A DNA stretch of 342 nucleotides, from NCBI RefSeq assembly GCF_003334385.1, contig NZ_QOWN01000197.1. The stretch is one strand, 5' to 3'. Positions 159-241 of this stretch are shown here, piece by piece. A program made the position numbers and the translations under genes. Position 1 is the first letter of the stretch. Every line of letters starts with the position of its first letter. The notes under the pieces are model-generated. The model had not been told where the DNA came from. It worked only from the letters and a program-made list of their open reading frames with translations, and did not search any database. The DNA comes from Escherichia coli (GTDB lineage: Bacteria; Pseudomonadota; Gammaproteobacteria; Enterobacterales; Enterobacteriaceae).

Positions 159-219
159 GCTACAAATCTACAGCTAAATAATACCCTGGTTGAGGCAAAT
201 TATTCGGTAATAAAAATTT

Positions 220-241
220 AAGGAGGCACAATAGCCTCCTT
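220..241. repeat. Perfect 8-bp inverted repeat AAGGAGGC-N6-GCCTCCTT (stem-loop); function unknown, contains a consensus Shine-Dalgarno-like motif
   Basis: 220-227 aaggaggc is the exact reverse complement of 234-241 gcctcctt, with 6-nt spacer acaata (228-233). Because it is a palindrome, the motif AAGGAGGC is presented on both strands. The minus strand has AAA TTTTT immediately 3' of the stem (complement of 211-219); the + strand has no T-tract after it. Confidence 0.8.

Follow-up and report, generated by a model that had tools for sequence, protein, structure and literature searches.

The palindrome at positions 220–241 of the 342-nt Escherichia coli sequence analysed here (the window), which we call H2, is a terminator-like hairpin of an ordinary kind, located where two prophage modules meet, and is one allele-specific example of a well-known class. 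The explanation that we favour, with modest confidence, is that H2 is an intrinsic-terminator-type RNA stem-loop which acts, if at all, on leftward transcripts, and which forms the middle, haplotype-specific member of a tandem array H3-H2-H1. Most likely, H2 either serves leftward transcription in one haplotype, as an auxiliary terminator or a stabiliser hairpin, or is simply a neutral palindrome. What modest value the locus has lies in its context, where three to four predicted leftward-facing terminators are grouped between the genes for the tail fibre and eib, a virulence moron. This cluster suggests unannotated antisense or small-RNA transcription at the module boundary in the Eib prophages of Shiga-toxigenic and commensal E. 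coli.

Genomic context of the window

The window spans the boundary where, in lambdoid prophages of E. coli such as P-EibA, a tail fibre assembly gene (tfa) gives way to the long spacer located 5′ of eib. The eib product is a YadA-like immunoglobulin-binding adhesin. The window shares 99.7% identity with a prophage in the E. coli JNEC-KY176 chromosome and 85–88% with phages PhiR5/PhiR12 and prophage P-EibA (AF151091). According to the ORF list and the RefSeq/GenBank annotation of matching loci, positions 1–127 of the plus strand hold the last part of tfa (DUF4376; orf-191A in P-EibA), whose full 192-aa product matches PHROG phrog_1141 'tail fiber protein' with E = 2.7e-78. Its stop codon, TGA at 125–127, is followed in frame by TAA at 128–130. 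The A-run that corresponds to the minus-strand U-tract of hairpin H1 starts within the second stop of this tandem TGA TAA; in haplotype B, described below, the A-run begins immediately 3′ of the TGA. Position 127 is followed by the start of a spacer of about 680 nt before eib, and both tfa and eib are carried by the plus strand. At the right end of the window, positions 286–342 are the start of a nearly invariant block which runs towards eib, forms the eib-side module and is identical in all three haplotypes.

The gene order J-(lom)-stf-tfa-spacer-eib-orf156-eaa was constant in every copy examined. Among 5,426 complete E. coli genomes, 27 contain the segment, which occupies 70 places in total, and in the two genomes checked the extra place corresponded to a second Eib-type prophage with an identical gene order. 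It was not found in a search of plasmids. A search for other contexts showed that the exact H2 22-mer is confined to the tfa/eib junction, and the anchor GCCCCTTGCTACAAANCTA gave only five chance matches, in unrelated taxa, among species-representative genomes. ARAGORN returned no match. A fragment of 168 bp upstream of eibG suffices for eibG expression (bioRxiv 10.64898/2025.12.25.695649), and the window is therefore located outside the eib promoter. Apart from this promoter fragment, nothing about the tfa/eib spacer was found in the literature on eib loci.

The spacer itself is highly variable, with lengths of 463–662 nt and 38 distinct versions among 39 loci. An 11-nt tandem repeat, TTCAATGGTCA (about 6470–6482 in locus L001), occurs in one to three copies depending on the locus and constitutes a small VNTR upstream of eib. 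Closer to the gene, a 25-codon ORF, MRAARYQIFFIYPMLNCFICIQIIL, occupies positions 6721–6798 of the L001 plus strand; its ATG is preceded at 7 nt by the Shine-Dalgarno (SD) sequence CAGGAG, and it ends 10 nt before the eib start (6809). This ORF is located within the 168-bp fragment sufficient for expression, carries 1-nt indels in some alleles and has no family match in PHROG or NCBIfam. It could encode a leader peptide. Two insertions were also observed around the junction. In the metagenomic locus L068, an insertion at the equivalent of window position 178 or so, after GCTAA and between H1 and H2, replaces the remainder of the junction; its sequence, GGAAGGTGCGAACAAGTTCCTGATATGAG..., is probably that of an IS5 end. 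In L072 (2456–4763; strain S1-CAM-02-A), an IS21-family element with ISSso4-like istAB separates an intact from a truncated copy of the DUF4376 gene, just upstream of the junction.

Geometry and stability of the H2 hairpin

Read on the plus strand, H2 is made up of AAGGAGGC (220–227), the loop ACAATA (228–233) and GCCTCCTT (234–241). The sequence, inverted-repeat and terminator scans and folding all define a perfect 8-bp stem closed by a 6-nt loop, which we assign to the minus strand. A previous sequence-only reading of the window had placed a palindromic hairpin at 218–241, and its coordinates proved correct base for base. The predicted plus-strand fold has an energy of −13.6 kcal/mol (z = −5.1) and the minus-strand fold, with an outer helix, an energy of −16.8 kcal/mol (z = −4.0); in both cases none of 200 shuffles was as stable. 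One dominant fold makes up 57% of the ensemble. For the haplotype A stem-loop taken by itself, the values are −13.1 kcal/mol (plus) and −13.7 kcal/mol (minus). When the window was shuffled with preservation of dinucleotides, 2.5% of the shuffles contained a perfect 8-bp hairpin with a loop of 3–8 nt.

With 8 bp, five G-C pairs and a 6-nt loop, the minus-strand stem is of the kind found in intrinsic terminators. The 3′ tail, AAATTTTTAT (positions 210–219, minus strand), is an imperfect U-tract with three A's first. This tail, scored as AAAUUUUUAU, was accepted by the scan with its AAA opening, at a score of 2.26 compared to 5.56 for H3 and to about 1.5–1.8 for plus-strand tails, values which were taken as background. 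As its U-tract is preceded by AAA, H2 is expected to be a poor terminator. In the minimum-energy fold of the minus strand, moreover, the U-run is buried within the outer helix.

A tandem array of leftward-facing hairpins

The terminator scan detected three sites in the window, compared to 0.3 expected from shuffles, and all three are on the minus strand. H1 (128–157) abuts the tfa stop. It is composed of a stem-loop (157→138), AGGGGC-8 nt-GCCCCT, followed by CTCTTTTTTA (137→128). H3 (254–285), identified by the scan, by folding and by its tail score, is composed of a stem-loop (285→264), (U)CGGGGAG-6 nt-CTCCCCG(G), followed by TTTTTTATCT (263→254), and is the most canonical of the three predicted terminators. 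Folded as plus-strand RNA, the three hairpins are equally stable (−12 to −14 kcal/mol). Their tails differ between strands, with scores of 2.3–5.6 on the minus strand versus 1.5–1.8 on the plus strand, where they are not U-rich.

A 115-nt indel (5346–5460 in locus L002) is located some 10–15 nt past the right end of the window, after GCGGAT. Within it is a fourth terminator-like hairpin on the minus strand, GGGGAGCGTGCCGTCTCCCC plus a TTTTTT tail, which resembles H3, and the insertion is present in many alleles. It is bordered by direct repeats of ATACAGAATTTTCGTA, and locus L058 carries the deletion that recombination between these repeats would be expected to produce.

We read these elements as tandem leftward terminators because four hairpin/T-run modules share the same orientation and adjoin the tfa stop, and because H1 and H3 are conserved. 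Transcription would start in the AT-rich region of about 520 nt between H3 and eib, and would proceed antisense towards tfa. A leftward polymerase would meet H3 first, and those reading through would encounter H2 23 nt further on and H1 after another 62 nt, so that the array would leave little antisense RNA entering the tail-fibre operon. H1–H3 might also protect the 3′ ends of leftward RNAs ending there; the array may instead generate the 3′ termini of small, unannotated leftward RNAs. Within H2, the AAGGAGG motif would simply be the purine-rich arm of the stem, and GTG-CCT-CCT-TAA would be the end of the loop, the pyrimidine arm and the A-rich flank read in one frame. The structure, the direction of the T-runs, the setting and the lack of conservation of the ORF are observations; that leftward transcription exists and that termination occurs we infer.

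Several searches were directed at the minus strand. Neither an annotated nor a conserved minus-strand gene was found through the H2 site in matching loci. A minus-strand protein gene was considered and rejected: in loci L001, L002 and L003 the ORF is neither in the same frame nor of the same extent, and PHROG and NCBIfam gave no matches. The search for a minus-strand promoter yielded a single promoter-like match, 9 of 12, about 230 nt upstream of H3. Over H2, the best Rfam 15 hit was Plastid-psbA-2, with 14.1 bits versus a gathering score of 55.8 (E = 7.9), and nothing with E ≤ 1 was obtained from Rfam in the 1-kb context. Finally, a structured-sRNA test applied to the invariant block upstream of H3 and to the paralogous module in the 115-nt insertion gave z values of −1.8 to −2.7, which derive mostly from the terminators.

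Two haplotypes of the junction

Viral contigs and metagenomes, scanned with sequence anchors, and the annotated records provided 62 loci, 61 of them with a readable H2. The metagenome scan alone contributed 52 loci and revealed the same two haplotypes only, deeper divergence being out of its reach. The junction is a mosaic in which positions 1–105 and 264–342 are essentially identical everywhere and positions 106–262 exist as two haplotypes. The divergent block, which covers the last seven tfa codons, H1 and H2, is about 79% identical between haplotypes, has sharp breakpoints and is flanked by blocks of about 100% identity. P-EibA-type loci carry a private patch at 241–277 with a small extra hairpin, CCCTGTCAGGG.

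Haplotype A, to which the window belongs, comprises 13 loci (14 including L071) and has the full 8-bp H2. Haplotype B comprises 48 loci and reads AAGGAGAT-GCAACG-GCCTCCT(T/G) on the plus strand, with no GTG, no Pro-Pro-stop and no U-run. Overall, H2 is strong in 14 of the 62 loci and degenerate in the others. The haplotype B version (48/61 loci) has a stem of 5–6 bp with a mismatch, predicted at −4.5 to −8.7 kcal/mol, and a tail, (T)TAATTATCATT, devoid of a U-run; H2 is missing altogether from the minimum-energy fold of the four P-EibA-type loci. One H2 pair is broken in all B alleles. Of the two arm substitutions in haplotype B, one converts a G-C pair into G.U on the minus strand and into A.C on the plus strand, and the minus-strand RNA retains more of the stem (−8.7 kcal/mol with the G.U pair, versus −5.4 kcal/mol for the plus strand). 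Haplotype A loci show two SNPs in H2, in the loop and the flank, one of which extends the stem to 10 bp and removes the TAA. Both haplotypes retain the 6-bp core AAGGAG/CTCCTT, and 8 of the 10 bases between the core arms differ.

In haplotypes A, B1 and B2 alike, H1 and H3 keep both their stem and their U-tail. The H1 loop varies in sequence and length among haplotypes, with 99% of cells paired in the stem alignment, and the H3 core GGGGAG/CTCCCC is present in all of them. Thus a stem and tail maintained in homologues, as expected of a terminator, are seen for H1 and H3 but not for H2. Because H2 is weak and lacks a U-run in 48 of 61 loci, any terminator role that it has is not conserved. Pair counting over 16 distinct alleles, too shallow a sample for this purpose, revealed no two-sided compensatory substitution in H1, H2 or H3.

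H3 is itself affected by a common SNP, C282A, which breaks one G-C pair and shifts the predicted energy from −12.5 to −5.3 kcal/mol. It is present in 10 of 14 haplotype-A loci, where H2 is strong, versus 5 of 48 haplotype-B loci, where H2 is weak (Fisher p = 2e-5, the loci not being independent). This association may stem from redundancy among tandem terminators or from their turnover, or simply from linkage. In the window itself, H2 and H3 are both intact.

The SD-like heptamer and the GTG-CCT-CCT-TAA frame

The minus-strand 5′ arm of H2 contains the SD-like heptamer AAGGAGG (235–241), and the end of the loop, the 3′ arm and the flank together spell GTG-CCT-CCT-TAA (218–229). The sequence-only reading had described this as an SD (241–235), a 5-nt spacer, GTG (229–227), two CCT codons and TAA (220–218), and these elements read exactly so. 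Its statement that the same heptamer on the plus strand has no usable start codon is equally accurate, ATG, GTG and TTG being absent from the next 15 nt. The notion of a three-codon ORF, in contrast, is right for the sequence but not for its extent. The frame is open over all 41 codons from position 340 to the TAA and forms part of an 84-aa ORF in a matching genome; what had been read as three codons is the end of a longer open frame, which is not conserved.

The stem does occlude its own SD, as had been suggested, the SD being more than 99.9% paired. Calculated in a 70-nt context, the probability of being unpaired is at most 0.07 for each SD base and below 0.001 for the GGAGG core. Under the usual thermodynamic model, with an assumed start-codon term, the SD:anti-SD interaction (−11.7 kcal/mol) set against the opening of the structure (+16.8 kcal/mol) leaves an initiation balance of about +5 kcal/mol. 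The heptamer AAGGAGG is kept in 57 of 61 loci and is replaced by CAGGAGG in the other four. Once the arms of H2 are given, the SD follows automatically. With loops and flanks drawn at random, 30% then have a start codon 4–9 nt after GGAGG and 6% have an ORF of no more than 5 codons. The H2 hairpin exceeds the usual chance expectation; its translational features do not.

Comparison of orthologous junctions bears on the same point. GTG-CCT-CCT-TAA is found in only 9 of 61 loci, which supports the earlier opinion that it is most likely a by-product of the palindrome. Three further haplotype A loci have TTG instead of GTG, one has lost the stop and the 48 haplotype B loci have no such frame. The mini-ORF is thus not conserved. 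However, the pattern named beforehand as refuting a translated unit, compensatory changes which preserve the stem while destroying the SD, start codon or mini-ORF, is not matched exactly, because the haplotype B stem has become weaker instead of being kept by compensation, and the SD-like heptamer persists.

The suggestion that such a short ORF might have a regulatory role is not supported: there is no downstream gene on the minus strand, and the ORF is absent from most related prophages. On that strand, only H1 and then antisense tfa are located 3′ of H2, and a leader or attenuator would therefore have no target. A leader-peptide attenuator or arrest element combines a short ORF preceding a gene on the same strand with alternative structures, and this combination was not found. 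The formal parts of a bar-type minigene are present (AAGGAGG, 5 nt, GTG CCT CCT TAA), without an accessible initiation region or maintenance among related phages. As the mini-ORF is 23 nt downstream of H3, it would be carried only by read-through RNA. Judged from these features, the mini-ORF does not appear to be a functional unit, and the SD and GTG-CCT-CCT-TAA are probably unused for translation.

Alternative explanations

A serious alternative, though we think it less probable, is that H2 is a neutral palindrome that arose by chance or hitch-hiked in the fast-diverging segment 106–262, with only H1 and H3 as functional terminators. The small share of loci with a strong H2 agrees with this explanation, as do the location of H2 in the least conserved segment of the window, its imperfect U-tract and the lack of covariation. 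Moreover, the frequency of comparable hairpins among shuffled windows is not negligible when many windows are scanned. However, the AAGGAG/CTCCTT core has been kept in both haplotypes despite the extensive differences between its arms, the SNPs of haplotype A fall only in the loop or flank, with one of them lengthening the stem, and the orientation and spacing of H2 match those of the flanking terminators. We consider it unlikely that H1–H3 are plus-strand 3′ stabilisers, which would block 3′-to-5′ exonucleases on the late tail-fibre mRNA or structure a long eib 5′ leader. The quality of the plus-strand folds and the position of the hairpins directly 3′ of the tfa stop are compatible with such a function. 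In lambdoid phages, antiterminated late transcription (lambda Q) reads through terminators, and processed 3′ ends at stable hairpins are plausible in this setting. On the plus strand, however, each hairpin is preceded by an A-run and none is followed by a U-run, the haplotype B substitution in H2 is tolerated as G.U on the minus strand only, and Eib expression is independent of the window region.

The two remaining explanations are far less probable than a leftward terminator-type stem-loop. The mini-ORF could be a translated minus-strand element, either a bar-like minigene or a Pro-Pro-stop arrest leader, with its SD gated by the hairpin; we regard this as very improbable. A 7-nt SD, a 5-nt spacer, GTG, two Pro codons and TAA do make up a complete unit, the lambda bar minigenes are a precedent in lambdoid phages (PMC8012679) and a C-terminal Pro-Pro interferes with termination in E. 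coli (PMC3834316). Yet the unit is restricted to a minority of loci, its start or stop is mutated even within haplotype A, its SD is sequestered at a net cost of about 5 kcal/mol, it is preceded by the strong terminator H3 and followed by no minus-strand gene, and its frame is open upstream, so that it is not a discrete ORF. If, against this very low expectation, the SD-in-stem and the fMet-Pro-Pro-stop of haplotype A were a hairpin-gated bar-like minigene on read-through leftward transcripts, opening of the stem, for example by an upstream ribosome or polymerase, would load ribosomes onto the three-codon Pro-Pro-stop ORF. Ribosomes or peptidyl-tRNA(Pro) would then be sequestered by the minigene, which would thereby modulate translation in the host or what becomes of the antisense RNA. 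Least probable of all, H2 could act at the DNA level as a protein-binding palindrome, the operator of a dimeric regulator. An 8-bp inverted repeat with a 6-bp gap, 22 bp in total, has a suitable geometry, but one half-site is altered in 48 of 61 loci with no matching change in the other, the eib start is about 570 bp away, the 168 bp that suffice for expression do not reach the site, and the window contains no second copy of the half-site.

Comparison with known systems

Tandem intrinsic terminators are well known, as in the case of rrnB T1-T2, and tandem t'J terminators were reportedly described in the lambda b region by Luk and Szybalski in 1983. The array resembles Rho-independent terminators in its GC-containing stems of 6–8 bp, its loops of 6–8 nt, its T-rich tails and the presence of several such elements within 160 nt where an operon ends. 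It departs from them in the AAA at the beginning of the H2 tail and in the degeneracy of H2 in most alleles. Unlike the usual tandem terminators, moreover, the array faces away from tfa and eib, both on the plus strand, and termination here is predicted.

The lambda bar minigenes consist of an SD and AUG-AUA-stop and are toxic to Pth-deficient cells (PMC8012679, PMC2490762). Like them, the H2 unit belongs to a lambdoid phage and combines, on the leftward strand, a strong SD, a start codon and an ORF of 2–3 codons. Unlike them, it has its SD locked in a stem of −13.7 kcal/mol (−16.8 kcal/mol with the outer helix, in full context), uses a GTG start and Pro-Pro codons instead of Ile, is not conserved and shows no homology to bar; it is also located at the tfa/eib junction, whereas bar is located in the att region. 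In the YbeL-PP model, a Pro-Pro-stop ending impairs termination (PMC3834316). The peptide of the mini-ORF would likewise end in Pro-Pro-stop, but the nascent chain would have only three residues, no regulated gene is located downstream and its translation is hypothetical. Homology to the lambda tfa/ea47 junction was considered and rejected, as lambda has a different long hairpin there and no terminator-like match.

The morons of lambdoid prophages are said to have been described by Juhala and co-workers in 2000 as a gene with its own promoter and terminator inserted between phage modules. Moron terminators are normally located downstream of the moron gene and on the same strand. The eib genes (AF151091, Sandt & Hill) are examples of morons, and the window is located at the left boundary of the eib moron. 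Unlike moron terminators, H1–H3 are upstream of eib and in the opposite orientation. The mosaic breakpoints, at about 105 and at 243–263, coincide with the hairpin cluster.
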